A stretch of DNA of 64,000 nucleotides from Naegleria gruberi (lineage: Eukaryota): the NCBI GenBank assembly GCA_000004985.1, contig GG738883.1; one strand, written 5' to 3'. This document shows positions 17,900-53,278 of the stretch, piece by piece. Below the pieces are notes generated by a model, which was given only the letters and a program-made list of their open reading frames with translations, ran no database searches and was not told the origin of the DNA. How positions within the stretch are numbered: the stretch's first letter is position 1; every line of letters starts with the position of its first letter. Position numbers and translations under genes: made by a program.

Positions 17900-20800
17900 T
17901 TATGAATAAACTTTTAGTTTGCCTGTATCAGTAGAAACAAGCAGTAATTTGTGAAGAGGTAAATATTTAACGTCAGTGTAGTTTCCATTATTGGAATCGC
18001 TTGAAATATTGTTAAATGCTTGCCCTTCACAATATAAAACCTCTCTATTGTCTGAATCGATTGGAATTTCTCTCTTCTTTTTAGAAAGCTTTCTTTGTTT
18101 GTTCTTGAAGTCGTTCGAGGATTTAGAGTTCAATCTGTCAATTACATTTCTTGTAGAAACAAAACTGGAAGATTTACAGTAGAGAATTCTATCAGGTTGC
18201 AATGCAAATAATTGATCACATTCTGGTCTACTATAAAAATCGAACGAAATGATTGGAGCATTCGAAACTAAATCTTGATTGGTATTGTTGGAAACCTGGA
18301 ATGCCTTGATACACTTGGATGGTACAGAGTTTCTTGTATCCCAAACACGAATTAAGTCATTCTTATAGTCAGCTGCATCTTCTACTGGTCCTGTAATTGT
18401 GGAGGGGCTATTATCAAATGAAACAGTCTTACGGCAGCATGTGATAAAGTGTCCAGGTTTGGTTCCATCGTATGGCAATATTTTAGTAAGCTCTCCATTT
18501 TCGTGTGAACAGAATGAATCCAAAATCAATCCACTATGTTGTTCCATTAAAAATATCACGCCATTAGATAGTCCAATAGTTAAAAAGTTATCTCTTGGAT
18601 GACACTTGGAAATGCATTTGATGTTATGTTCTCCAATCACAGCAGAAGAGGTTGATGACATCATGTTTGGTACATAATTTGATGATTGGGATGTGAATAA
18701 CTTCCACTCAAAGGCACAAGACTTGGAAGGTTGTCTTAGATCATAAAATTGCACATTAGGAACAGACGAATAACTACTAGCCACAAGAATGTTAGGATTA
18801 TTTGTCAATGTTTCAAAAGTAATGAAATTCATAGTACCATTCAATTCTTGATTAATAGATGGAGATCCTGCACCAACAGTATACAAATATTTAGTTGTCT
18901 CAACATCAAATAAGTGAATATTTCCTCCACTATCCTTACACAGAAACTTGTTATCTGAAATGAACTTTACCTTGTCAACTTGAGATCTAAATAATTGCTT
19001 GTTAGTAGTTCCAGTATTTTGATAGCACAAATAGGTGCTCTCCATAGAAGAAGATTCCAAATTCCACAAACGTACAACAGGATTTGAGTGATGTCGCAAT
19101 AAACCTCCACCAGTTAATATAATTCTCTCATCTGATGGACAAACATCAATACATCTAAGTGATAAGTCATTAAATTTCAAATCTGAAAGCTCATACTCCA
19201 AAATTCCCTTAAATTTAACATCAGAAGTTTCTCTATCAAAACTATTGAATGCAAATGATTTTTCAAATATTTTTCCACTTGATAGTTGGTTATGAATGTA
19301 CCAAGAATTCTTTTCTGAGGTAACCTTTTTTGCTTTGGAGTATTGAATTTTAGGCTCCTTTGACTTGAGCTCATCTGCATCATTCTCTGAAAAATCAACA
19401 GTATCTTTTGTAAGACTGTCTTCGAGCATCTTACTATTCAATACAGCCTCTCTCATTGTAGAATTTCCAAAAACGCAACAGAGCTCTCTATACAAGGTGC
19501 AACCCATCTTGAAATGTCTATTATTTTTGAATCCACAATTTTCATCGTCATTACTCTCCTTGGTAGATTCATCCTCGACGGGACTATCATTGGTCGAAAT
19601 ATCCAAATTCTTATCATCAGATGCTGTAGAATCTCCACGTTTGAATCTCTCAAAGAATGATCGAATACCCTTTTTCTTTGTAACCTCATTATTTGTAGAA
19701 TTAGCTTGAATGGTCTGGGCCTGAATCGCTTCTTCATCAACTAAATCGCTGGCTAATGGTTGGCTATTTACTATAGGATTCTTGGAAAGATTTGCAAAAG
19801 ATGGTGCCACAGCAAGTTGTTGTGAAAAGTATCCATCCAAGTAAACGGCAGAGCACAAGATTTTTCTAAATGTAGATTTAGAGTTTTGGAATATTTGAAT
19901 TCTAACTTTAAGGTCACAAATATGGAAGAGTCTACACAAAAAGTGAGTAATTCTCTCAAAAATGTCCAAAATGTAAACAAATTGATTATTGGAATCATCA
20001 TTTTGAATAGCTAAATTATAGGTTGCCTCCATAATATTATTAATCAAGACTTGATTTGTTTGTAAAATATTATTCACAACAAGAGTTTGATTTGTGGTTC
20101 TTTCGAGAATATTCTCTAACAAGTCAATAATATTAGTTGCATTCCTCTTTAAATTTTCAAGATTTGTTATAGAACTAGAGGTTAGATCGTATGTCTTGAT
20201 TTCTTGTAAAATGATAGAAAAGAATTTAGATGCATAGTAACTAACAATTGTTCCATATCCCAAATTGGAGCTCAAATTATTCAATAGTAAAAAGATACTC
20301 TCATCGAATTGATAATGTCTAATCTTTTTTCTCAGTTTGAATAGTAATGGATCCAAAATGTATTGTATCGAAACAATAATTCCAAAATCGTTACATAATT
20401 TACACAGTGTAGCACATATCTTTTTGGAAATTTCTGGAAACTTGACACAATTAGTGAATAATCCTTCAATAAAGAATGGTAATAATTGTTCTAAGAATAA
20501 ACGCTTTTGATCCTTAGTTGTTGGATTAGTGATACCCTCAGAGTATGTGGTTGATGATGTTTGAGAAGCCTTACTATAAGGTTTGTGTGTAACATCAGAC
20601 AATATTACATTATAAATTAATGAAGAAAATGAATATGAATACAAGTTGAGAGGTAGTAACAACAAGTCTGATCTTTCTGGAATGGTATTGTTTGGTGATG
20701 AAGATTCATTATCTGAGGAAGATGTGCTATTTAAAATGGACTCTACTCTTTCATTTTCCATATACAATTGATAGAGTCTCAATTTAAGTATCTTTTTGGC

Positions 20801-23479
20801 CGAGTCACACTCTTTGAATTTGGAAAGGAATTTCTCTCTCGAATATCTTACCATTCCTCTCAAAATTTCAATACCATAAGTCCATGGTTGGATGTGAACA
20901 AAATGATTTGGTGAATTTTTTTCCATCTTTTTCACAAAGAACATGTGGAGAATGTGAGGAAGAACTAAATCGAGAGCATCAGGTGGAAGAGCCATAATAC
21001 TCTCTTGGAATTCTTGTGAATTATTTGGTGGTTTGATTTGTCTCAATACAAAATTATATCTTTCCAAATGACTCTGAAAGAGGTATAAATTTGAGAGAAC
21101 CCAATGACAATACTTGAAATATTCTGGAAAATATTTTTTGGATTGGTTAATAAAGAGTGCCTTCTTTCCTTTTGAAAGATTGATATCAATTAACTTTTCA
21201 ACAATGGAACGAGCAGGTTGACTGATCTTTTTCAATGCAGGTACTTCTGGTTGATGGTTCAACATTCCAGTCTCCCTAATATACTTTTCAAGAGACCTCG
21301 TATTAAATAATGGCTCAAAAGTATAGAGAGAGGCTAGCAAACATCCAACAGCAAACATGTCATCATTATAAAGCTCGCCTTTGGATTGAACTCGAGAACG
21401 ATTAATCTTTTCAATGAATGGTACAACATGATAGGCAGAGCTGGTAAAGTACTTGCTACTGAATTTGACAGAATTTTCATACAAGTGCATTCTCTCCATA
21501 ATAGAATTTGATGTGGAATATCTAGGGGGGTGTGGTTCGAAGAATAATTGAACAAATCCAAAACGTGAAGGATACAAGTCGTTATTTTCCTTTCTCAACA
21601 TGACATTTTTAGCTTCAATGGCATGGTGTCCACTAAGCTTGTATCCAAAAATCAAATCAATCCAATGATGAATATTCTGACTCACATAGTCACTCTCCAG
21701 GGCAGCTTTATGCTTTTGAATAAATTCTTCAGGTGTAGAAGCCCACGGCGGCAATACTAAATCAGTCATGTCTGTATGAATGGAAGTGAACATGTTCGGA
21801 TCAGTGAAAAATTCTGGAATGCATTCATCTGGAGTCCACTGATAGAGACGAACAATGGAATTTGGATATTCTTTTGGTTCATAGTTTTGTCTGACAAATT
21901 TCCTCAATGCACTAATAGAAACTCTTCTTGCCTTGTAGATAAAGTAGGTAATTTCAGAAAGTGGCTCTGTAACGTGATGAGGATTATCTGGTGATTGATA
22001 GGTAAAATCCAACATTTCATCTCCCTTATTGAGTCTGAATTTAGTTTTGGTTAAATCTCTCCATTCAACACGTGAGTTTGGATCGGTTGGGTCACTCTCA
22101 AAATCAATAATCCATGGCAATACAGGATGATACTGTTGATCACCAAGTCTCCTCCCAGCAAGAGCATTAAGTTTCATCAAGTAGTCAAAATTTGAAATTT
22201 TACCCTCCTGCCATAAGAGAACTAGATCTTTGGTTCTATTCTCGGAAATGTTCTGTGGTGACAATAGGGTACTATTATTTCCAGCTGTACCAGTATTGGA
22301 TGTTTTTGAGGGTGATTTAAATTCTGCCATTGGTGTTTGTAAAACGTGATGATGATGATCAGAGATGTGTTCTGGAGTATAGAGTATATCCTGTCCAATA
22401 ATTGAAATCCACAACATTTCATTGATTAGAATATTATTGGGTATTAATTTTCCATGAGCAATATTATTCTTGTGACAATGTGAAACTGCCTGTAATAATT
22501 GATAGAATAAAAATCTTCTACGAATGTCATCTAAATTAATTGAATAAAAAGTTAATGAAATAATGAAACAATTATTAAAAAAAAACAATATAAAAACAAA
22601 CCTGTTTCAAGAAGAACCTTATTGAATTGAATCAATTCTTCCCAAGTATAATTGTACATTTCCAAAACAATAAACCAAGCATTTTTACTTTCATAAACAT
22701 CGTATAATAATGGTATATTAGCGTGCTATAAATAATAGTATTTCAATAATTATCATTTCCAAATGAATAAATAATTGATAATAAACAAATTTTAATAATG
22801 TTGATAAGTTAAATATTTAAAAATAATTATAACATACCTTTGGAATAAAAGGACCGTCAAATAATATAAAAGTTTCATCCAAATCCCCATGTGAAGGATT
22901 ATAAAAAGTATAATCATCCAAAATTAATTGATTTAAATGATAAATTTGTGATAATGAATGATGTATGGCCTTTCTAATTGAATGATTAGATTTTCCATCT
23001 CCCATTTCAAATTGTTTCGGAATGACTCGTACCACTACATTTACTTCATCGGGTAATAATGAAAGTGGAATACTATTATTTGAAATGATATTATGATGAT
23101 TAGAATTGTTATTATTGTTACTATTATTAACATTGTTATTATCCAAATTATTATTATTCAAATTATTCACATTATTTTCTTCATGTAATTGATCCTGTTG
23201 ATCTTGTTGATTCATTGTTGGAGATATTGATGATGAAATTGATGGTGATGAATTTAATTCATCTTGTTGTGATAAATTTTCATCATCTGTTAACACATGA
23301 TTATCAAAAGTAGGCCTCTTTTTATAAATCTTGGATCGTTTACTATTATACATTTTGCAACAAGCATAGGAACATTTTCTCGTATATTCGGGACTCAACA
23401 TGTACTGATACTCGATGAGAGTCGGCGAGAGATCCTGTTCAATATATTCTCTCACTTGACTCGCATTTAAATTTCCCAT
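17900..23479 (-). CDS. Giant kinase-like + BEACH + WD40 protein (WDR81/BEACH-family-like), N-terminal MGxxxS myristoylation motif
   Basis: Exons 22838..23479 (MGNLNASQ..., poly-Asn tract), 22602..22725 (HANIPLLYDVYESKNAWFIVLEMYNY, a kinase N-lobe-like segment) and 17900..22530. The kinase-like region lacks HRD/DFG but has HGKLIPNNILIN. BEACH core: NFDYLMKLNALAGRRLGDQQYHPVLPWIID...WIDLIFGYKLSGHHAIEAKNV. C-terminal WD40-like repeats. Phase-consistent GTATGT/GTTTGT introns. Confidence 0.65.
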
Positions 23480-24344: not shown

Positions 24345-26858
24345 ATGGTCAAATTCAGTATTGATGAAATCCGTAATATTATGGACAAGCAACCACAAAT
24401 CCGTAATATGTCTGTCATTGCTCACGTCGATCACGGTAAATCCACCTTGACTGACTCCTTGGTTGCTGCTGCCGGTATTATTGCTCAAGCTAATGCTGGT
24501 CAACAACGTTTCATGGATACCAGAGATGACGAACAAGATAGATGTATCACCATTAAGTCTACTTCTATCTCCCTCTACTATAAGAAGCCAGCTGAAGATG
24601 GTACTGAAACTGAATATTTGATTAACTTGATCGATTGTCCAGGTCACGTTGACTTTTCATCTGAAGTTACTGCTGCTTTGAGAGTTACTGACGGTGCTTT
24701 GGTCGTCGTTGATGCCGTTTCTGGTGTCTGTGTCCAAACTGAAACTGTCTTGAGACAAGCTTTGCAAGAAAGAATTAGACCTGTCCTCATGATGAACAAG
24801 TTGGACAGAGCTTTCCTCGAACTCCAATTGCAACCTGAAGATGCTTATACCAACTTTAACAAGGCTATTGAATCTGTTAACGTTGTCATTTCCACTTATG
24901 ATGATGGTGGTTTCGGTGATCCACAAGTTTACCCAGAAAAGGGTACCGTTGCTTTCGGTTCTGGTCTCCATTGTTGGGGTTTCACTTTGAAGAGATTCGC
25001 CAAGATGTACGCCAAGAAATTCGGTGTTGCTGAAGAAAAGTTGATGAAGAAATTCTGGGGTGATAACTTCTTTGATGCTGCTAACAAGAAATGGGTTAAG
25101 GACTCTCAAGGTGGTAAATTGGTCAGAGGTTTCTGTCAATTCGTCTTGGATCCTATTTACAAGGTTTTCCACTCTTGTATCAATGATGATAAGCCTCTCC
25201 TCGAAAAGGTCTTGCCAGTTTTGGGTATTACATTGTCTGCTGATGAAAAACAACAAAAGGATAAGAAGTTGATGAAGTGTGTTATGGCTAAATGGTTGCC
25301 AGCTGCTGAAGCTCTCTTGGAAATGATTGTCACTCACTTGCCTTCACCAAAGGTTGCTCAAGGTTACAGATATGAACATTTGTACAACGGTCCACTCGAT
25401 GATAAGTATTGTCAAGCTGTTAAGAATTGTGATCCTAATGGTCCATTGATGATGTACGTCTCTAAGATGGTTCCTACTAACGATAAGGGTAGATTCTATG
25501 CTTTCGGTAGAGTTTTCGCTGGTAAGGTTAGAACTGGTCAAAAGGCTAGACTTATGGGTCCTAACTTTGAACATGGTAAGAATACTGACTTGTTCGATGA
25601 TAAGACTATCCAAAGAACTGTCGTTATGATGGGTCGTTATACTGAATCTGTTGATGATATTCCTTGTGGTAACGTTGCTGGTTTGGTCGGTGTTGATCAA
25701 TTCTTGATCAAGACTGGTACTATCACTGATTCTGATTGTAAGGATGCTTGTCCATTCAGAGATATGAAGTACTCTGTTTCCCCTGTCGTCAGAGTTGCCG
25801 TCGAACCAAAGAATCAAGCTGATTTGCCAAAGGTTATTGAAGGTATGAAGAGATTGGCTAAGTCTGATCCTTTGGTCGTCTGTACTATCAATGAAGAATC
25901 TGGTGAAAAGATTATTGCTGGTGCCGGTGAATTGCACTTGGAAATTTGTTTGAAGGATTTGAGAGACGATTTCTGTGGTGGTATTGAATTGAAGATTTCC
26001 GACCCAGTCGTTGCTTTCAGAGAAACTGTTTCTGAAGCTTCCCCATGTGATACTTTGACTAAGTCTCCAAACAAGCACAACAGATTGTACATGAATGCTG
26101 AACCACTCCCAGAAGAAATGCAAGATGATATTGAACAAGGTAAAATTACTGCTAACGATGAAGCCAAGAAGAGAGCTAAGTACTTGCAAGACCAATACGG
26201 TTGGGATCAAGACCAAGCCAGAAAGATTTGGTCATTCGGTCCAGACCAAACTGGTCCAAACTTGATGGTTGACGTTACCAAGGCTGTCCAATATTTGAAC
26301 GAAATTAAGGACTCTGTCAACTCTGGTTTCCAAATTGCTGCTAAGGAAGGTCCACTCTGTAATGAAACATGTCGTGGTGTTAGATACAACTTGACTGATG
26401 TTACTTTGCACACTGATGCTATCCACAGAGGTGCTGGTCAAATCTTGCACACTGCCAGAAGAGGTTGTCAAGCTGCTCACTGTAACTCTGCTCCAAGAAT
26501 TTTGGAACCAATCTTTTTGGTTGAAATCCAATGTCCTGACTCTGTTTTGGGTTCAGTCTACTCTGTCATGAACAGAAGAAGAGGTACAATTGATCAAGCT
26601 ATCCAAAGACCAGGTACTCCAATGTTCAACGTTAAGGCTTACCTCCCTGTCTTGGAATCATTCAACTTCTCCACCTTCTTGAGATCTGAAACTGGTGGTG
26701 AAGCTTTCCCACAATGCGTTTTCCACCATTGGCAAATTGTTGGTGGTGATCCTTGGGATAAGACTTCAAAGATCAGAGAATTGGTTGTTGATACTCGTAA
26801 GCGTAAGGGTTTGAAGGAAGAAATTCCAACCGTCGAAGAACTCTCCGACAAGTTGTAA
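24345..26858 (+). CDS. EFT: Translation elongation factor 2 (eEF2)
   Basis: 837-aa intronless ORF: [40 protein letters not shown]..., G1-G5 GTPase motifs, and the diphthamide-region His ([12 protein letters not shown]). Confidence 0.95.
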
Positions 26859-27763: not shown

Positions 27764-30480
27764 ATGTCGACAACAAGTCACTTCAGTGATGAAAGTCTGC
27801 ATGATGATAATTTATTTGCAGAACATCCGATGGGAATTTATGATCAAGAAGAAAATCTTTACAAACACCAGCAACAAATCTATCGACCACTGAAGAAACT
27901 TTCCTCCACACAATTATCCACAGTTTACCTTTGTGAGAATTCTAATGGAAAACTTGTTGTATTAAAAGTTGCATCCTATGAAAATGAACAAGATACCATC
28001 GAGTGGAATCCGAAATTAGTTGAAGAATCGAATAGACTACATACACAATATCTACTTTATATTCTGGATGTTTTTACAGTGGAAAAAACCAATGGGAAAT
28101 ATTTGTGTGTAGTTTCCGAATATTGTGAGAATGGGAGTTTAGCAACAAGTATTGATGCTTTGCGTAAATCAATGAATGTTTCGTTATTCCTTCAGATATT
28201 ATTTCAAATGTTGCGTGCTTTGGATGCTCTTCATTTTGGTCTGTTTGTTCATGCTGATGTGAAGTTGGATAATATATTTGTGAGGAAATTTGATAGAAAT
28301 AGAGTATTTGTGGTATTGGGAGATTTGGGTTTAAGTTCCAAGATGGATTTTACTGAGGAGGAATTGTCTCAAAATTGTATTGATGTAGATAATGAACTGA
28401 CAACAGTCACTACAGGAGAAATTGGAACCTTTTCGTATAGAGATCCAATAATAATGAAACGAAGAAAAGTGTATTTCAAAAGTGATATTTGGAGTTTAGG
28501 TATGTTTCTCTTTTTTCTATTTGAGAATTGAACCTAATTTCTAAAGGAATAACTTTATTGAAATTGATATCAAGAGACGAAATGCCCAATTTTGAATCGA
28601 CAACAACAGAAGAAAGACTCAACACCATTCGACAAATATTTTCCCATTTTGAGACTGAAAAAAAAGAATGGGAAGTTTGTCAGAATATTATTGAACGAAT
28701 GTTAGTGGAAGATGTTACAGAGAGAGCAACTATTTCAGAAATTCGTTTAATGATTTATTCTACAACTATTGATGACTCATCATTTGAAAACAATTACCAA
28801 CATTTAAGGGAGGAATTCAAATACAACAGATCTGTAATTATTAGCTGTCTAAATGCAAAGGGAAGCATTTTACAACATGTACCTGATGCATTTCATTTCA
28901 ACAGAAAAATTGTAATGGAAGCAATTCACAATAATCCAAGCGCTTACCAATACATCAAAGGATACTTGAAATACCAACCATATATTGTAAACGCAGTTAT
29001 AGAAAGAGATCCATCTGTTCAAGTACCAGTTCATTTGGTAAAAGCTCCTTCACATTACGTTGCTAATAGCATTATCATTGAGCTTTCGGAACAAGAGAAG
29101 AATGACAAAGGGTTATTTATGGAAATTCTTGAAAGAGATGGTACGAGTTTAAAAGATGCCTCTTGGGAATTGAAAAATGATAGAGATTGTGTTATAAAAA
29201 GCGTAACACAGAGAGGAATTTCATTACAGTTTGCCTCAACTGATTTACGAAATGATGGAGAAATTGTGAGAATAGCTATTTCACAAAATGGAATGGCCTT
29301 AGAGTACGCTCATCCATTATTAAGACAAAGAGAAGATATTGTGATGAAAGCTGTTTCACAAAATGGATTGGCACTTCAATTTGCTTCAATAGAAATGAGA
29401 AATAATCAAAGAGTTGTGGAAAGGGCTGTATTGTCTGAATATACAGGCCAATTATTGTTTCTGATTGGTGAGGAATTGAGAAGTGACGTATCGTTCATGG
29501 TAAGATTGCTTAGTCTTAATCAGTTATTGTTTTTTCAATATTTGTTTTCTTTTGGAGAAGAATCTTTCAGAAATCTATGTGATGAGTATCAACATGAGGA
29601 TCAGTTTATTTGGTGTCTCAATGGATTGTTCGGCATTTTCGAAGATAACATTAATGGAGCACTGAAATATTTTCAACTTGCTGCAGAAAAAGACAATGCG
29701 TCTGCTGAACACTTCCTCGGTATAATGTACCATAAAGGACAAGTTGTGGAACAGGATTTTTGTAAGGCTTTTGAATGGTTTGGTAAATCAGCTGAAAAAG
29801 GATATCCAGAAGCTCAATTCTCGATTGGGTTAATGTATTATCACGGAGAATATGTTTCAAAAAATAAGGAAAGAGAATTTTATTGGATTTATAGAGCTGC
29901 TGAGCAAGGACATGTTAAGGCTGAAAGTTCTATTGCTTGTCTTTATTATGCTCAGGAAGAATATTCCAAATCATTTGAGTGGTATTTGAAAGCAGCTGAA
30001 AAAGGAGATTCAGATTCTCAATTTGAAATAGGTTCACTGTATCACAAAGGATTGGGAATACCAAAAGATTTTACAAATGCCTTTAGTTGGTATTCGAAAG
30101 CTGCAGAACATGGTCATTCGAAAGCTCAAAATAATATTGGAGTATTGTATCAAACAGGACAAGGTATTCCACAAAATTATTCCAAAGCACTTGAATGGTT
30201 CATGAAATCAGCTGAGAATAATGATACAGATGCCATGAATTTTATTGGACTGATATATCAAGAAGGCCAAGGAGTTCCACAAGACAACATCACAGCATTC
30301 GAATGGTTTCTAAAAGCAGCCGAATGTGGCAATGTACAATCTCAAATACTTGTCGCTACCATGTATCATCATGGTATTGGAGTGGAGCAAAACTTGTATG
30401 ATGCACTGAAATGGTATGAAAAAGCTGCAGGAGGAACTCAGAATAATTCAAAAGCTGATTCCAAAGAAATTGAGAATTGA
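27764..30480 (+). CDS. Atypical protein-kinase-domain protein fused to ~38-aa tandem repeats and C-terminal Sel1 repeats
   Basis: Exon 1 27764..28499 and exon 2 28547..30480 (intron GTATGT...AAAG). Kinase-like motifs include VVLKV, HADVKLDNIF (HRD becomes HAD), DLG (in place of DFG) and GTFSYRDP. Four or more repeats of the type EIVRIAISQNGMALEYAHPLLRQRED. Seven or more Sel1 repeats (e.g. AEHFLGIMYHKGQVVEQDFCKAFEWFGKSAEKG). Confidence 0.65.
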
Positions 30481-31026: not shown

Positions 31027-32487
31027 ATGATATCAAAATTTAGTATTCGAAATATAGCCATATTTATCTGTGGTGCATTATTATATGGTTTAATAACTGT
31101 ATTTTTATATCGTGCTGTATTTAATTCTAATAGTATTAGTGGAAATAAACTTTCTAATAGTGAAACTTCATCAGGTAGTGGAAAACATCATCATACAAAT
31201 AATAATCAACATAAACAACAAGAACAAACAACAATTAATGAAATTAAAAATCCTTTCGAATACTTTTTACCCACCAAAGATTCTATTAAAATGATGTCAA
31301 TTCCGCACAAGGATTCACAACCAAGTCTTGAAGAAATGAAATCAACACAATCAAATCAATGTGGTTCAACAGTTGGTAATACAGTTCCTGGAAGAGGGAA
31401 GAGAAGTGAAAATTTTGATTGGCCAAATTTTTCACCATCAAGTTTTAATATTGAAACTGATTTTAGAAAGTGGAAGAATGAAAGTATTGAATATTGGAAG
31501 AAGGTTTCTAGTAATTTGAATGGAGATTTATTGAATGATGAAAAATTAAAGATGAATGAAATGGGATTAACTTTAAATTCTCATTTGAAACCTAAAGATG
31601 GACATTTACCTATTTGGTTGAGAGTATTTAAGAGAAGAACACCACTTGATATTTCACTAGCAGCCATTTGTAAGATTGATGATATTTCTGATACAATTTT
31701 ATATGTTACTGTTGATGGTGGTGATTTTGATCCAGTTTTTGAAGAATTGGAGAAGGTTACTTGCGTGAAAGTTAAAATTTATTTCCATCCAATTTTGAGT
31801 GATTTGAAAAATTTAGGTTTAGGTGAAAGAAATTTAGACAATTCACTCACTCTAAATTCACATTACGTTTATGGAATGTATCTACTCACTCAGAAACTTA
31901 ATTATCCCTATGTGATTACAATTGAAGATGATTTGGAAGCTAGTCCTGATTTTTACAGATATCACTACAGTTTATATCATTTAGTTTATGGAAAGAATGC
32001 AACCTATTATGATAGTAAGAAAATATTTGCAATTGCTGCCTTTGCACATGGTCCACACATTGATTGTAATTTCATTGTTGCAAAACTCTCAAATGATTAT
32101 ACATCAAAATGTGGAATGGCCTCTGTTCATCAATTAATTGAAGAGAATTATTTTCCAGGATGGGGAAGTGGTATTGCTAAAGAGATTTTCCTTGAATATT
32201 GGAGGGATTGGAGATTTAATGGTTATATTTATGATTATGGTTTATCACAACTCAGAACAGGAGATTCAGGATCACCTCGTTATACACTTGTTCCTTGCTC
32301 AACTCGTGTAAGAACCATTGCAAATAATGGAGTGAATGGAGGAAACTCTGGGGGCTGGGGTACACAAATTCATCATTTCCCAAGTTGGAATCAAAAACCA
32401 TCAGATAGAGTGTACTATGTCGATAGGAGAGATGGTGTTGTACATGCTGATGTTAAAGGAAAAATAATGTACAATAAGCTTGTTTAA
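31027..32487 (+). CDS. Type II membrane glycosyltransferase, GT13 (GnT-I/MGAT1- or POMGNT1-like)
   Basis: N-terminal signal anchor (IAIFICGALLYGLITVFLY). Catalytic region with the E-D-D motif in GnT-I context (ITIEDDLEASPDFYRYHYSLYHL...IFAIAAFAHGP). 486 aa, single exon. Confidence 0.5.
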   Translation: MISKFSIRNIAIFICGALLYGLITVFLYRAVFNSNSISGNKLSNSETSSGSGKHHHTNNNQHKQQEQTTINEIKNPFEYFLPTKDSIKMMSIPHKDSQPSLEEMKSTQSNQCGSTVGNTVPGRGKRSENFDWPNFSPSSFNIETDFRKWKNESIEYWKKVSSNLNGDLLNDEKLKMNEMGLTLNSHLKPKDGHLPIWLRVFKRRTPLDISLAAICKIDDISDTILYVTVDGGDFDPVFEELEKVTCVKVKIYFHPILSDLKNLGLGERNLDNSLTLNSHYVYGMYLLTQKLNYPYVITIEDDLEASPDFYRYHYSLYHLVYGKNATYYDSKKIFAIAAFAHGPHIDCNFIVAKLSNDYTSKCGMASVHQLIEENYFPGWGSGIAKEIFLEYWRDWRFNGYIYDYGLSQLRTGDSGSPRYTLVPCSTRVRTIANNGVNGGNSGGWGTQIHHFPSWNQKPSDRVYYVDRRDGVVHADVKGKIMYNKLV

Positions 32488-34524: not shown

Positions 34525-35766
34525 ATGAAACAAGCAATCATGACTCTCAAGTTTACAAGTTTCCTTATTGCCTCAATAAGCATGTTGTTTATATATCTCT
34601 CTGTATGTCAAGTTGTTGATGCAGCAACGTGTACCAATAGTCAAGGATGTGGCGTAAGGGCATTCCTTGCAGATCTTCAACAAGAGGTTTCTCAATTAGA
34701 TTGTATCAGCAGCAAGTTGAATAATAGCATTGCAATTTTGATGTCTACAAATTCCTCAGCATTAAATTCTCAGATCAAGACCAGAGTCAAGCAATTGAAC
34801 AAGATTGAGGCTGCTAAAAAGATGTTGTCCTTAGAAATAGCTCCATTGAATGATCAATGCAACAAACAAGACGGAGACAATTGTGACTTGGCATGTTTTG
34901 GACTCGCTCCTTCCAAATATCCTTCAACAGTTTGTTCTGGTCATGGAGTATGTTCTTCTCTTGATGTCTGTTCATGTTATCCAGGATGGTCAGGTAGTAA
35001 TTGTTCTCTCGCTTCATGTAATGGAATTTTAGCAACCAATACAAGCTCTGTTTGTAATGGTCGTGGCACATGTGTTTCCAACAATACTTGTGTTTGTAAT
35101 AGTGGAGTGTATGGTCCTTACTGTGAACCAATCATTATTACTGGAGATGATACAACAGGCAGAAGAATGGCCAATGGTGTGGCCAAGGCAAGTTGTTTGG
35201 AATTTTATCAAGCTTATCCATATGCAGAATCTGGTTTTTACTACATCAAGCCACAAACTACTGAAGTATTAGTGTATTGTAATATGACTATGAGTGGTGG
35301 AGGTTTCACATTTGTTCGTCGTGTTGCAGCTGCAGGTTGGTGGCCTTTGAATGATAATTTTGGTGGAAGCGGTTCTGGAATTTATAATCCAAGATCATTA
35401 TCAGCTGCTGGTGTTACATTTGGTCTCGATTATTCCAACATTCCTAGAACTCAAGTATTAATTACAACAGGTGATGGTGTGCATTGGATTCTAGTTAATT
35501 TGGATCAACTCACTTCTGGATATGGTGGGAATGATTGTACAGCCACAATTACTCTATTAGCAAGTTCTATCAGTCCAAATACTCCTTATTCTGTACAAGT
35601 TTGCAAGAGAGGAAACTTTAATGAAGACCCATGGTTGACAACTCATAATCATTTTTACATGACAACAGATAGTGAAAGTCACAGTATGTTGTGGGGTGAA
35701 TCAAGTAATACCTATTGGCCATATTGGAAGACTAGTCATGGTGGTATCAATGTGTTTATTAGATAA
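34525..35766 (+). CDS. Secreted protein with tenascin-type EGF repeats and a fibrinogen C-terminal-like (FReD-like) domain
   Basis: Signal peptide FTSFLIASISMLFIYLSVCQVVDA. EGF-like Cys spacing (CSGHGVCSSLDVCSCYPGWSGSNCSLASC; CNGRGTCVSNNTCVCNSGVYGPYCE). Then ASCLEFYQAYPYAESGFYYIKPQTTEVLVYCNMTMSGGGFTFVRR, which resembles the FReD core SGxYxIxP...VYCDM..GGGWTVxQRR. Confidence 0.55.
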   Translation: MKQAIMTLKFTSFLIASISMLFIYLSVCQVVDAATCTNSQGCGVRAFLADLQQEVSQLDCISSKLNNSIAILMSTNSSALNSQIKTRVKQLNKIEAAKKMLSLEIAPLNDQCNKQDGDNCDLACFGLAPSKYPSTVCSGHGVCSSLDVCSCYPGWSGSNCSLASCNGILATNTSSVCNGRGTCVSNNTCVCNSGVYGPYCEPIIITGDDTTGRRMANGVAKASCLEFYQAYPYAESGFYYIKPQTTEVLVYCNMTMSGGGFTFVRRVAAAGWWPLNDNFGGSGSGIYNPRSLSAAGVTFGLDYSNIPRTQVLITTGDGVHWILVNLDQLTSGYGGNDCTATITLLASSISPNTPYSVQVCKRGNFNEDPWLTTHNHFYMTTDSESHSMLWGESSNTYWPYWKTSHGGINVFIR

Positions 35767-38500: not shown

Positions 38501-39451
38501 TCATTCATCACTACTATCGTATCTATCTTCCATTTCTTCTAGGAGATTGAGCTTGTTAACTGATGCAACTTTCACACCCAATGACTCTGCTCTTTTGAAT
38601 AATTCAAGAGCTCTTTCTAAGTCTTCAAACTCATCTCCGCACGTAAGACTGACCCCTAAATCATTAATGGCTCGTGGATGATCTTGCTGAGCTGCTTTTT
38701 CAAGCCAAAATATTTTCATTTCCTTATCTTCATAACCTGGTTCGACACGGAATAAGATTGAAAGGTTGTACTGAGCTCTGACATGTCCTTTCTTTGCAGC
38801 TTTAATAGTCCACTCAAATGCCTTTCTAACATTCTTTTCAGTTCCCTTCCCTTTGGCATAGAAACTTCCAAGTTTACATTGAGATTTCACAATTCCTTGT
38901 TGAGATGCCTTTGAGAACCACTTGAATGCTTCATTGTAATCTTTTCGAAATTCAAATTCTCTTCCAATTGAGTATTGTGATAACGAATGTCCTAGCTCAG
39001 CAGCTTTTAAATAAAGATCAAATCCTTTAGAATTCATTTTGTTAGCGTACATGATATTCCCTGCTTTTCGAAAGAATAGGGGACTGTGAGTATCTGCAAT
39101 TTCTACAAATAAATCGACTTGTTCCTGACAACTTCCTCCCTTAATACTAGGTAAAGTGAACACATTCAAGCTAGATAGGAATGACGCTTTTGGTAAAAGA
39201 TTTCTGAAAGTGTCAAAATCAATCGATTTCCCCTTCAATTCCAATATTTCCAAACTGGTAAAATTTTTGCAAGATAAAACGTGTTGTAAATCTTCTGGTG
39301 AAAGGTCATAATTATTCATGTCCAATTCCAAAACTCCCTGCATGGCACTACTATTACACATTTCCTCAATACTAAAAGACTCGGTTTTATGCACTTCAAT
39401 TCTCACCCATGGAATTGAATAGAAAACGTGATGGAAAGATTTGGCGACCAA
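38501..39451 (-). CDS. Sel1-repeat protein with an LRR/F-box-like N-terminal region
   Basis: Four or more Sel1 repeats (SQYSIGREFEFRKDYNEAFKWFSKASQQG; SQCKLGSFYAKGKGTEKNVRKAFEWTIKAAKKG). A 5' exon is possibly missing. Confidence 0.55.
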   Translation of the reverse strand: MVAKSFHHVFYSIPWVRIEVHKTESFSIEEMCNSSAMQGVLELDMNNYDLSPEDLQHVLSCKNFTSLEILELKGKSIDFDTFRNLLPKASFLSSLNVFTLPSIKGGSCQEQVDLFVEIADTHSPLFFRKAGNIMYANKMNSKGFDLYLKAAELGHSLSQYSIGREFEFRKDYNEAFKWFSKASQQGIVKSQCKLGSFYAKGKGTEKNVRKAFEWTIKAAKKGHVRAQYNLSILFRVEPGYEDKEMKIFWLEKAAQQDHPRAINDLGVSLTCGDEFEDLERALELFKRAESLGVKVASVNKLNLLEEMEDRYDSSDE

Positions 39452-39677
39452 TTTGGAAAGTCAAAATTTGAAATTTGTACTGAAAATTATTTAGGAAAGA
39501 TCGTATATGAAACACAATATCAGGTGGAATGTAGATCCCTTCCATTTTTTTTATGAACGGTAAATTTGAAAACGTGATCAGAGTTTACAAAAATGGTTTT
39601 CATTGCAAGCATTGTCACAAAGCTAAAAATAGGAATGAATTGAAAAAATAGTTTTGAATTTATTTATTATATGTCAA

Positions 39678-41561
39678 TTAAAGAAGGAACAAGATAAGCA
39701 CAATCAAGCAAGAGAAATACTTCAAAGTCATACTGATGGAGACACTTCCACTTACTTGTGCCAAAGGAGCCAACAATACATTTCCACTCAAATTCTTTGT
39801 TTGACAAACAACTGAACCATTTTGGTTAGTAGTAATAATTGTTGTATCCACACTAACAGTCTCTGTAGCCCTATCATATCTTCCACAAATTGGAGTCATT
39901 GTACCAGAATATGGGATTGTAATCTTGATATAACCGTTGACAATACCATCAGCTATAGTACCATTTTCAAAAAGTGGAATAAAATCATAAACCTTAGATA
40001 CCATTTTCAATGAAGATTCTCTTTTTTTTGTTGGCTGTACAGTTCGAGCATTTGCTAAAACAGCTTGAATGCAATAATTAAATTCGTACTTGTCTGTAAT
40101 TAGGAAACATGCCAAGAAACGAGTTTTTGAAGTTGCCATTTCAATAGTAGAGGAACCAACAGGAATTAAACTAGCTCCCTTAGCAACTGCCAAATCAATG
40201 TTAGCGCTACTTGCTGTGACAACATCACCAAGTGTGAGAGCTGGTGTTAATTTCGCACCAATGGACTTGGCCAATAAAGATGACTTGTCGTTAGATGTCA
40301 ATAACAAGGCATTTGAGGCAACATTAATAACAGATTTAACAATGTCAGGAGAGAATTTAGAATTACGAGTAGATTCAATTAATGCATCTAAGGCCTTATT
40401 AGCAGACGTTTGTGTAAGTTCACCAGCAACTGAAGTGACAGATTCAAGTACTTTCACTACAGCCCCAAGATCACCTGAAGCAATATCTTTGGAGAGTGAT
40501 GTAATAATAGTATTTCTTATGGCTGCCTTTGTTGAAATTTGAGAATTATCACTTGTTGAAACTGTATTCAATAGAGAGGCAACACCTAACAAGTCTCCAA
40601 CAGACGAATTAGTGGAAAGGAGGTTAGATATGAGTGTAATAGCTTGACTAGTTGGCAAATTTGCAACTGGATTGGTGAGTGGAATGGTAGTCAATTTTTG
40701 AATACTGACGGATTTAGAACCATATGTTGCAACATAGAGATCAATTGAATTTTTACCAGAAAGTAATGGTAAAGTAAATGTAGCTGGATTTGGTGACACC
40801 TCGGTAAGAATTGTAATGGCGTCAGAATCAGCAAAACCAAATCCATAACCAAAATCAGAATCAGAATATGGATTAGAATTACCAGTAATAGTCAACTTGA
40901 AATTGGTTTTACCAGCAATGCCTGATGTAATAATTTGATTTGTGTTGGCATCTTGTAACAAGAATGTCAATTTTGGATCTTGTTGAACTACAATTGTAGT
41001 TGATTCAGTGATAGTAACACTCAAGGAAGGAGTTGTAACTTTGGCAGTCAATGAAAAACCATAAGTATTACCAGATTTAATACCATTATCAAGAGACAAC
41101 TTGTCTACCTTTCCAGGGATTTTCAATTGTGGTCTATTTAAATACCCTGCAACTGATGCCAAATCAAAAGCTGGACCAGAAACTTGTGACCAAGAATATT
41201 CAACATTAGAAATAACATCATTAGTGGCCAATGATGATATAGAAGATATAACCTGAACACCCAACATTGGGTGGGTGTATGCAGATGTTGCAACTGCACC
41301 AAAAACAGAACAATATTTACCATAAAATCGACTTGGACATGAACAAACACCAGCAGTACAACTACCATAACCACTACATTGTAGATAAACACCAATGGCT
41401 GTATCAATACATTGTTCTTCTTCTTGATTTCTCTTAATTGTGAGGTGGTTAGGATCGGAGACAGCACCATATGATAGGCAACACATATATGAGGAGAAAA
41501 CTAACCAAGCAACTAGAAGAACCAGTTTGCTGGTTGTGTGCGTGTGGATGGTTGTTGCCAT
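39678..41561 (-). CDS. Large secreted Ser/Thr-rich protein with an N-terminal EGF-like module and a C-terminal hydrophobic (GPI-anchor-like) tail
   Basis: Likely start MATTIHTHTTSKLVLLVAWLVFSSYMCCLSYG (signal peptide). EGF-like CIDTAIGVYLQCSGYGSCTAGVCSCPSRFYGKYC. A ~500-aa S/T/N-rich region. C-terminal YFSCLIVLILFLL. Confidence 0.5.
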   Translation of the reverse strand: MATTIHTHTTSKLVLLVAWLVFSSYMCCLSYGAVSDPNHLTIKRNQEEEQCIDTAIGVYLQCSGYGSCTAGVCSCPSRFYGKYCSVFGAVATSAYTHPMLGVQVISSISSLATNDVISNVEYSWSQVSGPAFDLASVAGYLNRPQLKIPGKVDKLSLDNGIKSGNTYGFSLTAKVTTPSLSVTITESTTIVVQQDPKLTFLLQDANTNQIITSGIAGKTNFKLTITGNSNPYSDSDFGYGFGFADSDAITILTEVSPNPATFTLPLLSGKNSIDLYVATYGSKSVSIQKLTTIPLTNPVANLPTSQAITLISNLLSTNSSVGDLLGVASLLNTVSTSDNSQISTKAAIRNTIITSLSKDIASGDLGAVVKVLESVTSVAGELTQTSANKALDALIESTRNSKFSPDIVKSVINVASNALLLTSNDKSSLLAKSIGAKLTPALTLGDVVTASSANIDLAVAKGASLIPVGSSTIEMATSKTRFLACFLITDKYEFNYCIQAVLANARTVQPTKKRESSLKMVSKVYDFIPLFENGTIADGIVNGYIKITIPYSGTMTPICGRYDRATETVSVDTTIITTNQNGSVVCQTKNLSGNVLLAPLAQVSGSVSISMTLKYFSCLIVLILFLL

Positions 41562-42155
41562 ATGTTTTTTAAAGATCTTGATAAGGAACAAATGAACCTG
41601 TTGATGAAACTGTAGTTGCCAGTGGTGGGTTAACAATCAAGGATTCTTTAAGCGGATTGGGTTGTGGGCACATTTAATTTCAATCAAAAGTTCATCAGGA
41701 ATAAATTTGATATTGTATTATTTCACAAATTACTTTCTTTTCCAATGAAGATAAAAGATGAAGAGATAGAACCTTCCTTTTGATTTTATTCCTGGCTAAT
41801 GATGGAAAACAATGATGATGGTTTGTTTGGTGAATAATCGGAGCACCAACTTGAATTTTCCACGATGAAATATAAGTTTCCAATCACATGATGAAAATTC
41901 ACTTCTTAAAATTGATGTGAATTATTCTTTGATTTCATGATGTGAGAAATCACTCTGAAAATCAGCATTGCCACAAAGTACCTGTTGACGAATATTGTTA
42001 ATCCTGATTCAAATTTTACTATTAAAACTCCCAACCCCACCTCAATACCAAAAGTGTATTAAGTGTGAATAAAGCTCCGAGGAGTAAGTAGTTCTAATTT
42101 ACTGCCATCTTATTTCGAATACAGATGAAATGCACATTCTAACAAATTAAAAAAA

Positions 42156-42980: not shown

Positions 42981-43131
42981 ACGGAAACTAATCTCATGAT
43001 GAATTTAGTGAAAATTTTCACTTTTCCTTAATACTATTACACATCCAAACCGATTAGTAAATAGTAAATGTCTTAAATGTGTGTTCGCTTAGAGATGAGG
43101 ACTTATTTCTTTTAAAAAAATAAAACAAAAA

Positions 43132-43827
43132 ATGAAAAGAAAGAGAGAAACTCCAAAAACTCCAACCAAACAAGATCAACGTAATGTTAAGAAAACAGTG
43201 CACCGTCCCGATCATTTAAATGCTTTGGAATATCTTAAAGGTGCTCAACAAGGATGTATAAAGTCGCAATTTAATATTGGATTTTTATATCAAAATGGAA
43301 AAGGAGATAAACAAGATTATTCCAAAGCAATGGAATGGTATTTAAAAGCTGCTGAAAATGGTCATTCAGCATCACAATTTCAAATTGGATGGTTATACAA
43401 GCATGGAAAAGGAGTTAAACAGGATTATTCCAAAGCAATGGAATGGTATTTAAAAGCTGCTGGAAATGGTCATTCAGCATCATATCACAACATTGGATGT
43501 TTATATCAAGCATGGAAAAGGAGTTAAACAGGATTATTCCAAAGCAATGGAGTGGTTTTTAATATCTACTAACAATGGTCATTCAATTCATCATATCACA
43601 ACATTGGATTTTTATATCAAAATGGACAAGGAGTCAAACAAGATTACAAAAAAGCAATGGAATGGTTTCTAAAAGCTGCTGAACATGGTCATTCATGCGC
43701 TCAATTTCAAATTGGATGGTTATACCTTATTGGAAAAGGAGTTCAACATGATTATTGCAAAGCAATGGAATGGATCATAAAAGCTGCTGAGAATGGAAGC
43801 TCTGCAGCCCAAAATTTCATTAATTGA
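43132..43827 (+). pseudogene. Sel1-repeat gene interrupted by two compensating frameshifts (+1 at ~43507, +2 at ~43585)
   Basis: Frame 1 encodes a basic N-terminus plus three Sel1 repeats, then a stop at 43525. The repeat array continues in frame 2 (HGKGVKQDYSKAMEWFLISTNNGHS) and then returns to frame 1 (YHNIGFLYQNGQGVKQDYKKAMEWFLKAAEHGHSCAQFQIGWLY...AAQNFIN*). Alignment with neighbouring repeat units shows 1-nt and 2-nt insertions. Confidence 0.5.
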
Positions 43828-48226: not shown

Positions 48227-49849
48227 TTAACCACCACTCTCAATATTATTTCTTGTCAAGAACACGTTATCATATTCGAAAGATAGTCTTTCTTTGAGAG
48301 CTTCTTCATAGGGAATAGCTGGGTGACCAATCTCACAAAATAGCCCTGCATGTCGTGCTAATTCAATTGCTATATCTTTGCTTTTTGAAATATAATTTAC
48401 AAACTCTGCTGCCATACCAGAACGCTGTTTTAGTGTGAACAAAAGCATTGACTCATCCGTAATGTACAAATGTCTAATATCGTTATTGTTTCGTATTAGA
48501 CTAGGATTTGCTACTAGTGCCCTTTTTATATAGTCTCTATCAGATAGTTGACTGTTTGTGAGTTTGTGTTGACTACCGAATGTTTTTGAATGTTTGAGAC
48601 ATTCAAGAAGGAATTCTTCATCCTCCAACATTGAGGGAAGTATATCAATGGTAATATCTTCTGATAAAGTCTTGATTATTAGATTCTTATTTGTCTTTAA
48701 ATGATGTGAAAGAAAGTGATAGACTTTCGGGTTCACTTTGAGTGCTTTTTCAGCAAACTCGATATCGTTCAGCAGATGATTTGGTAAATGTTTGATATAC
48801 TCTGATTTGACAATAGTTTCCAATATTAAATCTTCGGTCATTGAAGAAATTAATTGTTCTTGTAATAACTTGATTTCCCAACAAACATTAATTACATGTT
48901 CAATAGCTAGGGGATTTTGAGATAATGCTTGTTTTACAATATTCTTATCAGACCTCAATCGTATAGATGCATATTGAAGAGCCAAACCATTCTGCTTTAC
49001 AGCCAATAGCACAATTTCACTTTGATCTCTCATTACTTCATTCGCAAACTCCAGTGCAAGCCCATTTTGCTTCACTGCAATTTTAACAATAGAGTAAGGT
49101 ACATCTCTAGAGCAAAAATTCAGAGCCAATCCATTTTGTGTAACAGCAATTTGAACAATGTCTAAATCATTCTGAAATTTTGAAAATACTTTCAAATTGA
49201 GTCCATTCCAACTGATGAATAATCTGGCCAGTTTCTTATCCACCAGTTTCGATTCATCTAAATAATTAATATCTCCCTTTGCAGCAGCAGTAATAACATC
49301 CTCATCATATTCCAACTCATTTCCAATAAAGTAAATATTGAATGGATTGACTTTTAAAACTCTCAATATAAATTCCTTATTTTCCAAATACTTTGAGGGA
49401 AGATTATGCAAAGTAAATCCAGTTTTTTCCATTGCAACCTCAATCACATCTTCATCATAGGCAATACTCGGATCTCCATAGTGAATCATTGCTCCAGACA
49501 TTGAGAGGGCCCTCTTTAATATTTCCTTATCTAACAACCATGAAGGAAAGGAACCTCTCGCATGATCAATATAAAGTTGTCCATTTTGATTCACTGCCTC
49601 CAATACAACATTTCTACAGGCCATAAACTCGACAGGAATCAGACGAATTTCCCTCCACGAAATTATACTCTTTAATTTCCATGTTTTTAGTTCAATATTG
49701 AGAAAATCATCTCTTCTTCGGAACCATTTGCACAGATTTTCCTGTTGACTATTAAATTTTCTTCGTAATAATTTGCTGTAAATTCCCTCCGATAATTGGA
49801 AATCTATTAATTCAAAAATCACCAGAGCAGATGTTGGATCTAAATGCAT
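48227..49849 (-). CDS. Protein composed of the same ~38-aa tandem repeat module found in the kinase-Sel1 gene
   Basis: 540-aa ORF. Repeats include DQSEIVLLAVKQNGLALQYASIRLRSDKNIVKQALSQN and DLDIVQIAVTQNGLALNFCSRDVPYSIVKIAVKQNGLALEFANEVMRD, very similar to 29230-29420 in the + strand gene. Confidence 0.5.
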   Translation of the reverse strand: MHLDPTSALVIFELIDFQLSEGIYSKLLRRKFNSQQENLCKWFRRRDDFLNIELKTWKLKSIISWREIRLIPVEFMACRNVVLEAVNQNGQLYIDHARGSFPSWLLDKEILKRALSMSGAMIHYGDPSIAYDEDVIEVAMEKTGFTLHNLPSKYLENKEFILRVLKVNPFNIYFIGNELEYDEDVITAAAKGDINYLDESKLVDKKLARLFISWNGLNLKVFSKFQNDLDIVQIAVTQNGLALNFCSRDVPYSIVKIAVKQNGLALEFANEVMRDQSEIVLLAVKQNGLALQYASIRLRSDKNIVKQALSQNPLAIEHVINVCWEIKLLQEQLISSMTEDLILETIVKSEYIKHLPNHLLNDIEFAEKALKVNPKVYHFLSHHLKTNKNLIIKTLSEDITIDILPSMLEDEEFLLECLKHSKTFGSQHKLTNSQLSDRDYIKRALVANPSLIRNNNDIRHLYITDESMLLFTLKQRSGMAAEFVNYISKSKDIAIELARHAGLFCEIGHPAIPYEEALKERLSFEYDNVFLTRNNIESGG

Positions 49850-52900: not shown

Positions 52901-53278
52901 TCCTCCATTACATTCAAATTGAATCCTCTTACTTTGATCAAATGATTCCAAGATCAAACTTTGCAATGGTTGATAACATACTATTCCACACTTGTATTCT
53001 CCATCCATCAAGTAGACATGAACTCTAGAAAATCTAATAGAATTGGCATAGGAAATAGCCTCTTCTACACTCTTGCAAGGGTTATTAGGGGATGTACAAT
53101 TGCGTTCTGTATTTAAGGATGACGGCTTAACATAGACAAATACATAACCAGATGACAATTGTTGATCAAATGATGATGATGTCGTTGTTGTTGTTGAATT
53201 ATCAACCAGAGCATTAATTACCACTGGTAGGCACATGAAAAGCAAAAAGAAAATCGGGGATATTTTCAGTGGAGTCAT
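49987..53278 (-). CDS. Single-pass receptor kinase with a parallel β-helix (PbH1/GGA-motif) ectodomain
   Basis: Start MTPLKISPIFFLLFMCLPVVINA (signal peptide) at 53278. The ectodomain has GGAVYVEG, MGGAIYAKL, LGGAIFVENP and SGGCIYISEP β-helix repeats. TM segment IIPISVVLGILLMIFIILLLFLTF. The kinase is split by an intron (50537..50586; GTATGT...AATAG, phase-consistent): IGEGSNGVVYLGKWKGKQVAIKALK / ...HR|DLKPGNILISNDFVGKVSDFGLS...VDVYSFSIIMWEV. Confidence 0.65.

Follow-up and report, generated by a model that had tools for sequence, protein, structure and literature searches.

The window analysed here, a 64-kb stretch of DNA, contains at positions 27764-30480 a locus that raises three questions: whether a kinase with unusual motifs is indeed fused to a repeat array and a Sel1 array, whether such a kinase is likely to work, and whether the protein belongs to a family that has expanded locally. 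The spliced gene model and the Pfam matches establish that an atypical kinase is truly fused to both arrays. The fusion is also fairly ordinary, and holds no major surprise for a specialist in kinases or protist genomics.

Gene structure and repeat arrays

The locus is a single two-exon gene on the plus strand, with the splice computed from the sequence:

27764..28499, plus strand: exon 1, with the ATG at 27764, encoding aa 1-245 and base 1 of codon 246 (subdomains I-IX of the kinase, preceded by the N-terminal tail)
28500..28546, plus strand: spliceosomal intron of 47 nt, phase 1, GT..AG (GTATGT...AAAG)
28547..30480, plus strand: exon 2, from the rest of codon 246 to aa 889 and the stop (kinase subdomains IX-XI, DUF4116 array and Sel1 array)

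The interval is one gene but not one continuous open reading frame, since an in-frame stop at 28529-28531, within the intron, splits the locus into two mechanical ORFs. Removal of the intron joins DIWSLG to ITLLKL, which restores kinase subdomain IX and recovers subdomains IX-XI, and the score of the Pfam Pkinase match is lifted from 84.5 to 103.5 bits (cutoff 31.7), with coverage of the profile extended from positions 4-191 to positions 4-257 of 263.

The spliced product of 889 aa is identical at 889/889 positions (100%) to the N. gruberi protein XP_002674554.1 (NAEGRDRAFT_80589, UniProt D2VMW1), which is annotated as "predicted protein". The gene is therefore already catalogued, though uncharacterised, and has been public since the release of the N. 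gruberi genome. A literature search on the gene identifiers, the Naegleria kinome and Naegleria Sel1 proteins found nothing specific to this gene. Fragments in ENA were rejected as evidence of conservation or transcription, since these are pieces of genomic DNA, unspliced, that come from a nearly identical strain. No signal peptide or transmembrane segment was seen in the 889-aa protein when its sequence was judged by eye. The protein comprises three domains in the following order:

27890..28743, plus strand, intron spanned: protein kinase domain, aa 43-311 (Pfam PF00069, E 1.6e-29)
28807..29556, plus strand: DUF4116 (PF13475) array, aa ~333-582, with ~10 units of 25 aa (Pfam E 3.5e-41)
29611..30447, plus strand: Sel1 (PF08238) array, aa ~601-879, with one degenerate and seven clear 36-aa repeats (Pfam E 2.1e-63)

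Repeats of the type first described after the kinase are present far beyond chance, but the module is not a new one: Pfam already lists it as DUF4116, which is matched at 138.9 bits against a cutoff of 24.9 by four to five stretches of the 49-aa model, each of which spans two units. Nor is the unit ~38 aa long, as had been proposed. Unit starts at aa 452, 477, 502, 527 and 554, together with an exact 25-aa spacing in other proteins, define a repeat of 25 aa with the consensus L(R/K)xD(R/K)(D/E)(V/I)VLxAVxQNGxAL(E/Q)(Y/F)AS. Three units (aa 452-526) are close to this consensus and the remaining ones are degenerate. The first-pass annotation had proposed a profile search against domain databases, and had held that a known domain with a defined function would speak against its reading; this came half true, in that the search returned a named domain whose function is still undefined. 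To our knowledge, no function has been shown by experiment for DUF4116, and none of its structures has been solved. An AlphaFold2 (AF2) model of aa 323-600 is all-helical (pLDDT 90.1), with three short helices per unit, and the array is predicted to form an alpha-solenoid, an architecture that was also predicted for DUF4116 by a published trRosetta model (PMC8078820).

The second array agrees with the earlier count of at least seven Sel1 repeats. The TPR-like Sel1 profile (PF08238) scores 208.9 bits against a cutoff of 30.7; the repeat HMM detects seven units, one of which is shortened to ~32 aa, and the degenerate repeat comes in addition to these. In an exhaustive protein search the target gave 249,278 matches, the best 150 of which were dominated by Sel1 proteins, with bacterial Sel1 proteins among the best matches being 29-46% identical to it. 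Word-indexed searches, run with the whole protein as well as with aa 1-599, gave only distant matches at ~26% identity and none from Naegleria, missing even the cluster representative that is 98% identical.

The kinase domain and its predicted activity

The kinase-like domain had been described as carrying HAD for HRD and DLG for DFG, with no clear glycine-rich loop, and all three peculiarities are confirmed:

27899..27925, plus strand: degenerate glycine-rich loop, L46-SSTQLST-V54, with S47, T49 and S52 where GxGxxG has its three glycines
28250..28273, plus strand: catalytic loop, H163-A-D165-V-K167-L-D-N170, with HAD for HRD (aa 163-165)
28322..28330, plus strand: DLG (D187-L-G, aa 187-189) in place of DFG, with the Mg-binding Asp kept

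A failure of this region to align to the protein kinase fold had been named as the other ground for doubt. The region clearly does align: in addition to the Pfam match, 252 distinct PDB kinase sequences match it at E<=1e-5, and it models as a canonical bilobal kinase fold. The AF2 model (pTM 0.73, core pLDDT 70-93) was built from only 8 sequences and is silent on activity. When searched with Foldseek against the PDB it retrieved at least 2000 kinase chains at E<=1e-3 with a target-normalised TM of ~0.7, the best being MST1/2, DAPK1, AAK1 and DCLK1 (E~1e-14). Neither comparison points to a single kinase group. The best PDB sequence matches are a mixture of CDPK, NEK1/2, STK24/25, PLK1 and PAK, all at E 4e-10 to 3e-8, with NEK1, NEK2 and STE20-like kinases among them; CAMK, NEK, STE20 and PLK kinases match at similar E values of 1e-9 to 1e-10, and the best Foldseek matches are likewise mixed.

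The catalytic set occupies canonical positions in the PDB and kinase alignments: K68 (beta3), E88 (alphaC), D165, K167, N170 and D187. Residues K68, H163, D165, K167, N170, D187, D241 and R305 are invariant in the kinase alignment. Departures are found elsewhere. The P-loop LSSTQLSTV, which aligns to LGxGGMGxV in the kinase alignment and to LGSGAFGDV of PDB 3is5, has no glycine at all. The activation segment after DLG is long (~37 aa) and of low confidence (pLDDT <50 for aa 189-220), and ends in D227-P-I229 where APE is expected; the APE glutamate is thus lost, while R305, its usual partner, is present.

On this evidence we consider it reasonably probable that the gene encodes a cytosolic multidomain signalling protein, in which a non-RD, possibly weak Ser/Thr kinase is joined to a protein-binding solenoid made of DUF4116 and Sel1 repeats. 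The N-terminal eukaryotic-type kinase would lead into an all-helical arm of ~10 DUF4116 units followed by 7-8 Sel1 repeats, and this arm would bring in substrates or partners, position the kinase or keep it autoinhibited. Judged from its residues, the kinase probably still binds ATP and transfers phosphate. Its efficiency is likely to be lower or otherwise changed, given that Ser/Thr/Ser stand in for the P-loop glycines and that the APE glutamate is lost. Because the kinase is non-RD (HAD), it would not be switched on in the usual way, in which a phosphate on the activation loop contacts the arginine of HRD.

The main competing explanation is that useful catalysis has been lost, and that the domain serves only as a nucleotide-sensing or docking module in a large solenoid scaffold. 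A glycine-free P-loop or a missing APE glutamate could indeed abolish or greatly weaken catalysis, and the replacement of GxGxxG by S47/T49/S52, the change of APE to DPI, the absence of the HRD arginine and the long, low-confidence activation segment all fit such a scaffold, as does a report of Sel1-bearing homologues of the pseudokinase MLKL in Glomeromycotina (PMC8778642). What speaks against it is the absence of the usual signature of a dead kinase, the decay of residues of the K68/D165/D187 type.

Pseudokinase surveys usually rely on three residues, the beta3 Lys, the catalytic Asp and the DFG Asp, and call a pseudokinase where at least one of them is missing. The target kinase has lost none of the three (K68, D165 and D187), nor E88, K167 or N170, and by this three-residue rule it scores as predicted-active. 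The DLG motif is also that of active NEK6/7, and like these and other active kinases of the non-RD or DLG type, the target keeps the catalytic K/E/D/N/D set while lacking the arginine of HRD or the phenylalanine of DFG. We regard such a loss of useful catalysis as possible but rather unlikely. It is conceivable, though improbable, that the glycine-free but otherwise catalytically intact kinase is active and binds ATP in an unusual manner. With its catalytic core intact and its P-loop devoid of glycines, the domain is a clean test case of how dispensable the glycine-rich loop is.

The signalling or scaffold role suggested by the first-pass annotation remains a sensible reading of the fusion. 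Sel1 is an established protein-interaction repeat, and the solenoid is interpreted as a binding arm by analogy with the TPR, Sel1, ARM or LRR arms of other kinase fusions. In kinase-solenoid fusions such as LRRK2 and the bacterial STK-TPR proteins the helical repeat arm binds partners, as proposed here for the target. Both the non-RD/DLG kinases and the LRRK2-type fusions, however, keep the glycine-rich loop and the APE glutamate, whereas the target has neither. A similar layout is seen among four fusions of Pkinase and Sel1, from N. lovaniensis (XP_044542312), Actinomortierella (KAF9972631), Gonapodya (KAJ3335551) and a Riflebacteria metagenome-assembled genome (MAG; MBI4863072). Several of them, such as the N. 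lovaniensis and Gonapodya proteins, have, like the target, an N-terminal Pkinase followed by a long C-terminal Sel1 array, that is, a catalytic head and a solenoid arm. All four differ from the target in having no DUF4116 array between kinase and Sel1. The N. lovaniensis kinase is not an orthologue, since its GxGxFG, HRD and DFG motifs are canonical and it shares only 24% identity with the target. The target protein joins the many kinases that are tethered to an arm of helical repeats, and the stakes are modest.

Neighbouring genes in the window

Three other loci in the window carry one of the two repeat types:

38501..39451, minus strand: Sel1 ORF with 2-4 diverged Sel1 repeats (Pfam Sel1 E 3.1e-24), 32% identical to the target Sel1 array
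43132..43827, plus strand: Sel1 locus, a DNA tandem array of 4.9 copies of 108 nt
48227..49849, minus strand: DUF4116-only gene of 540 aa (Pfam E 4.7e-56; 10 unit-HMM matches at domain E<=1)

The separate gene reported for the same repeat module at 48227-49849 does exist, as a distant paralogue that is 32% identical to the target array. Both Sel1 loci noted earlier are also present, but the one at 43132-43827 is not an intact gene: its frame is lost near 43508 (+1) and regained near 43585 (+2), a TAA stands in frame at 43525, and the locus is probably a pseudogene or an assembly error. An intron was rejected as the cause of these breaks, as the out-of-frame stretch is still consensus Sel1 and the repeat there measures 111 nt rather than 108.

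These neighbours had been taken as signs of a locally expanded family, in which the kinase, DUF4116 and Sel1 genes of the window would be young tandem duplicates forming one Naegleria-specific family. The number of such genes invites this view, with two DUF4116 genes, three Sel1 loci and at least four kinase-domain genes within 64 kb, and the Sel1 locus at 43 kb is itself a young tandem array of 108-nt units. Their divergence does not bear it out. A recent local expansion is unsupported because the DUF4116 and Sel1 neighbours are only 32-49% identical to the target (32% for DUF4116 and 32-49% for the Sel1 copies), which is no closer than the bacterial Sel1 proteins among its best matches. The window's two nearest kinases, that of the target gene and a second at 44891, gave no mutual BLASTP match at 1e-3; the target gene has no DNA-level repeats; and DUF4116 and Sel1 are both very widespread. 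We consider a recent expansion in this region very unlikely.

Distribution of DUF4116 and giant viruses

Contrary to the first-pass annotation, the repeat is not lineage-specific, and occurs across protists, bacteria and giant viruses. At E<=1e-5 its profile matches at least 1088 proteins, among them those of dinoflagellates, MMETSP protists, and MAGs of Clostridia and Bacteroidetes. These DUF4116 proteins share with the target array the 25-aa unit and its consensus, and are likewise predicted to be alpha-solenoids. Most of them consist of repeats only or combine these with F-box, U-box, ubiquitin, WW or PHD modules, partners that are typical of adaptor repeats. In contrast to the target, a kinase domain is absent from the 120 best profile hits. 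The context in the target, with a kinase upstream and Sel1 downstream, argues for a role of DUF4116 as a protein-binding adaptor.

Many giant-virus proteins match the target DUF4116 array structurally in BFVD, at 12-24% identity. The best of these matches (E 2.7e-9) is a Sylvanvirus protein of 714 aa, A0A3G5AKB3, annotated as "protein kinase domain-containing", which is 24% identical to the target array over 250 columns. If its annotation is right, it would combine a kinase with DUF4116-like repeats; unlike the target it is viral and shorter, with no Sel1 array reported.

An exchange of the DUF4116 module, or of a kinase-DUF4116 cassette, with a nucleocytoplasmic large DNA virus infecting heteroloboseans, in either direction, is very unlikely. 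In its favour, Klosneuvirus, Hokovirus, Catovirus, Bodo saltans virus and Marseillevirus-like MAGs contain DUF4116 in abundance; of 87 IMG/VR loci picked out with a degenerate DNA motif, 84 encode it; it is named in a figure legend on viral HGT candidates in Symbiodiniaceae (10.1101/2022.04.12.488082); and its best viral structural match is a kinase-annotated protein. Against it, none of the 189 viral DUF4116 ORFs from the motif-scan loci has a kinase, searches of viral contigs in IMG/VR with the target and with consensus-like repeats found no close relative, and the viral matches are distant. The target gene, moreover, contains a spliceosomal intron, and GC content is uniform across the window (~29-40%) and shows no change where the gene lies.

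Gene model and kinase domain

The two-exon gene at 27764-30480 (+) is real and encodes an atypical kinase that is already catalogued, is unstudied and belongs to a known class of kinase-solenoid fusions. Within this eukaryotic window (GC ~33%), mechanical ORF calling divides the interval into two plus-strand frames, 27764-28531 and 28528-30480, the first terminating in ...DIWSLGMFLFFLFEN*. The DNA reads as a 47-nt phase-1 intron (GT at 28500, AG closing at 28546), the excision of which fuses DIWSLG with ITLLKLISRDEMPNF, a textbook kinase subdomain IX, and yields an 889-aa product; Pfam Pkinase coverage grows from positions 4-191 (84.5 bits) in the unspliced frame to 4-257 of 263 (103.5 bits) after splicing. 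The spliced product is identical over 889/889 residues to the N. gruberi entry XP_002674554.1 (EFC41810.1, NAEGRDRAFT_80589, UniProt D2VMW1), annotated as "predicted protein". The gene model is thus already public, the existence and location proposed in the first-pass annotation are right, and a literature search found no paper citing any of these identifiers.

An unspliced, ~98% identical copy, broken up by apparent frameshifts, is encoded as three database proteins (P0067, P0165 and P0166) on a 1931-bp ENA contig from an environmental or other assembly, which indicates a near-identical N. gruberi strain within another public dataset.

Kinase motifs were placed from alignments with solved kinases and from A4, an alignment of eight kinase domains.

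Features of the 889-aa product
Pkinase domain, aa 43-311 (Pfam, E 1.6e-29)
P-loop, L46-S-S-T-Q-L-S-T-V54, with S47, T49 and S52 in place of the three glycines
Beta3 lysine, K68
AlphaC glutamate, E88
Catalytic loop, H163-A-D165-V-K167-L-D-N170
DFG position, D187-L-G
Activation segment, long, ~37 aa
APE position, D227-P-I229
Subdomain IX and XI residues, D241 and R305
DUF4116 (PF13475) array (Pfam, E 3.5e-41)
Sel1 (PF08238) array (Pfam, E 2.1e-63)

These alignments bear out the three departures described earlier, namely HAD, DLG and the absent Gly-rich loop. HAD makes the protein a non-RD kinase, and DLG is compatible with kinase activity, as in NEK6/7. The AlphaFold2 model of the domain, built from only 8 sequences, has a pTM of 0.73 with a confident core and disorder in the N-terminal tail and activation loop. 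Its Foldseek matches number at least 2000 chains of PDB kinases, headed by MST1/2, DAPK1, AAK1 and DCLK1 (E~1e-14, TM ~0.7, target-length normalised), so that the region does align to the kinase fold, a point on which the first-pass annotation had made its reading depend. Among solved kinases, CAMK, NEK, STE20, PLK and PAK members match with similar E-values, which singles out no one kinase group.

The best-supported reading, which we consider reasonably probable, is that of a cytosolic non-RD Ser/Thr kinase head bearing a C-terminal DUF4116 and Sel1 solenoid, which would recruit partners or substrates, or regulate the head. The domains themselves are established; both the catalytic competence of the head and the binding role of the solenoid arm are predictions. 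The main rival, a pseudokinase head inside a pure scaffold, is possible at a clearly lower probability. It draws on the real uncertainties surrounding the predicted activity, the P-loop without glycine and the loss of the APE glutamate; against it, all residues that are catalytic or bind Mg-ATP by side chain are kept in the alignment, and by the standard K/D/D criterion the predicted domain is not a pseudokinase.

The solenoid arrays and their distribution

The repeat xD(G/Q)EIV(R/L)xA(I/V)SQNG(L/M)ALxYA, previously taken as novel, is the named family DUF4116, as follows from the Pfam profile match of the array. Its unit is 25 aa and not ~38 aa, judging from the spacing of unit starts, which are clear at aa 452, 477 and 502 and degenerate at about 527 and 554; the same spacing recurs in an unrelated 1471-aa DUF4116 protein (80, 105, 130, 155 and onward), and the 49-aa Pfam model covers two units. 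The AlphaFold2 model of aa 323-600 (124-sequence alignment, pLDDT 90.1) is all-helical with about 10 units, each built from three short helices that measure roughly 4-5, 10 and 6 residues. The Sel1 array has seven clear repeats, one of them shortened, and a degenerate eighth at the N-terminal edge, in agreement with the at least seven counted before.

Of 8000 candidates scored with the DUF4116 profile, at least 1088 matched at E<=1e-5; Symbiodinium, Durusdinium and other MMETSP protists are represented, as are MAGs of Clostridia and Bacteroidetes. In some of these proteins the repeats are accompanied by F-box, U-box, ubiquitin, WW or PHD domains, and a kinase domain is absent from all of the 120 best matches. 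The spread over protists, bacteria and viruses shows that the repeat is not novel and, contrary to what had been suggested, not lineage-specific. Two long metagenomic DUF4116 proteins, P0001 and P0002, have in common a conserved C-terminal region without a Pfam match (motifs resembling LLCGTEITGSCQRV...LLAVK and LLLGTEVIGSCHNV...AIVVK), which may be an uncharacterised partner domain.

Proteins that join Pkinase to Sel1 were confirmed in N. lovaniensis, in two early-diverging fungi, in a Riflebacteria MAG and in metagenomes; unlike the N. gruberi protein, they all lack DUF4116. The N. lovaniensis protein is not an orthologue, because it has canonical kinase motifs and its kinase domain is only 24% identical. 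The order kinase-DUF4116-Sel1 was seen only here and in the near-identical strain fragment, among poorly sampled Naegleria proteomes.

Neighbouring genes and viral matches

A six-frame translation of the window was searched with HMMs built from the protein's own repeats. The DUF4116 and Sel1 genes noted earlier do exist; apart from the gene itself, DUF4116 matched at a single locus and Sel1 at two.

Repeat loci in the window
48230-49849 (-), DUF4116
43099-43824 (+), Sel1
38504-39460 (-), Sel1, weak match

Despite this proximity, the proposed local expansion did not hold, and recent expansion is a minor alternative. Identity between the two DUF4116 arrays is 32%; for the Sel1 array it is 49% against the 43-kb locus and 32% against the 38-kb gene, compared with 29-46% for the best listed Sel1-dominated matches from all life, bacterial ones included. 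The kinase has no BLASTP match at 1e-3 to that at 44891-46333, and the gene has no DNA-level tandem repeats. By sequence comparison the genes do not form a recent tandem family. The neighbours look like a reflection of the genome's general wealth of kinases and solenoid proteins. Also present in the window are a gene with BEACH and kinase domains, a receptor-like kinase, and proteins of the ARM and TPR types.

Exchange of the module with giant viruses is likewise a minor alternative. Foldseek against BFVD, a viral structure set, found that numerous giant viruses have the DUF4116 fold (Klosneuvirus, Hokovirus, Catovirus, Bodo saltans virus), as do Marseillevirus-like and Mimivirus-like MAGs; the best match, Sylvanvirus A0A3G5AKB3 (E 2.7e-9), shares the DUF4116-like fold and bears the annotation "protein kinase domain-containing". 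Scanning DNA with a degenerate form of the motif AVxQNGxALxYA gave 87 IMG/VR loci, 84 of which encode DUF4116, and none of their 189 DUF4116 ORFs contains a kinase. DUF4116 repeats abound in the genomes and MAGs of giant viruses, and some phage contigs have them too.

Three further kinase-domain genes lie in the 64 kb, at 17903-22588 (-), 44891-46333 (+) and 49987-53446 (-).

Other genes in the window
353-1411, ARM-repeat protein
10427-11926, TPR protein
17903-22588 (-), BEACH-domain ORF whose N-terminal end partially matches Pkinase, therefore probably a multi-exon gene
24345-26858 (+), intronless EF-2
31027-32487 (+), 34525-35766 (+) and 39678-41636 (-), GNT-I-like glycosyltransferase and two EGF-repeat proteins
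44891-46333 (+), 480-aa kinase with motifs GKGGYG, HND and DFD
within 49987-53446 (-), 969-aa ORF with a kinase N-lobe at its end, probably running on into the adjacent ORF 49987-50553 past an intron or frameshift

An MA3-domain protein and an LMBR1-like membrane protein are found elsewhere. The Sel1 locus at 43132-43827 (+) is a young DNA tandem array (108-nt x 4.9, 82% matches) in which shifts of +1 near 43508 and +2 near 43585 lengthen one repeat to 111 nt and bring an in-frame TAA at 43525; the locus is probably a pseudogene or the product of an error in assembly or sequencing.
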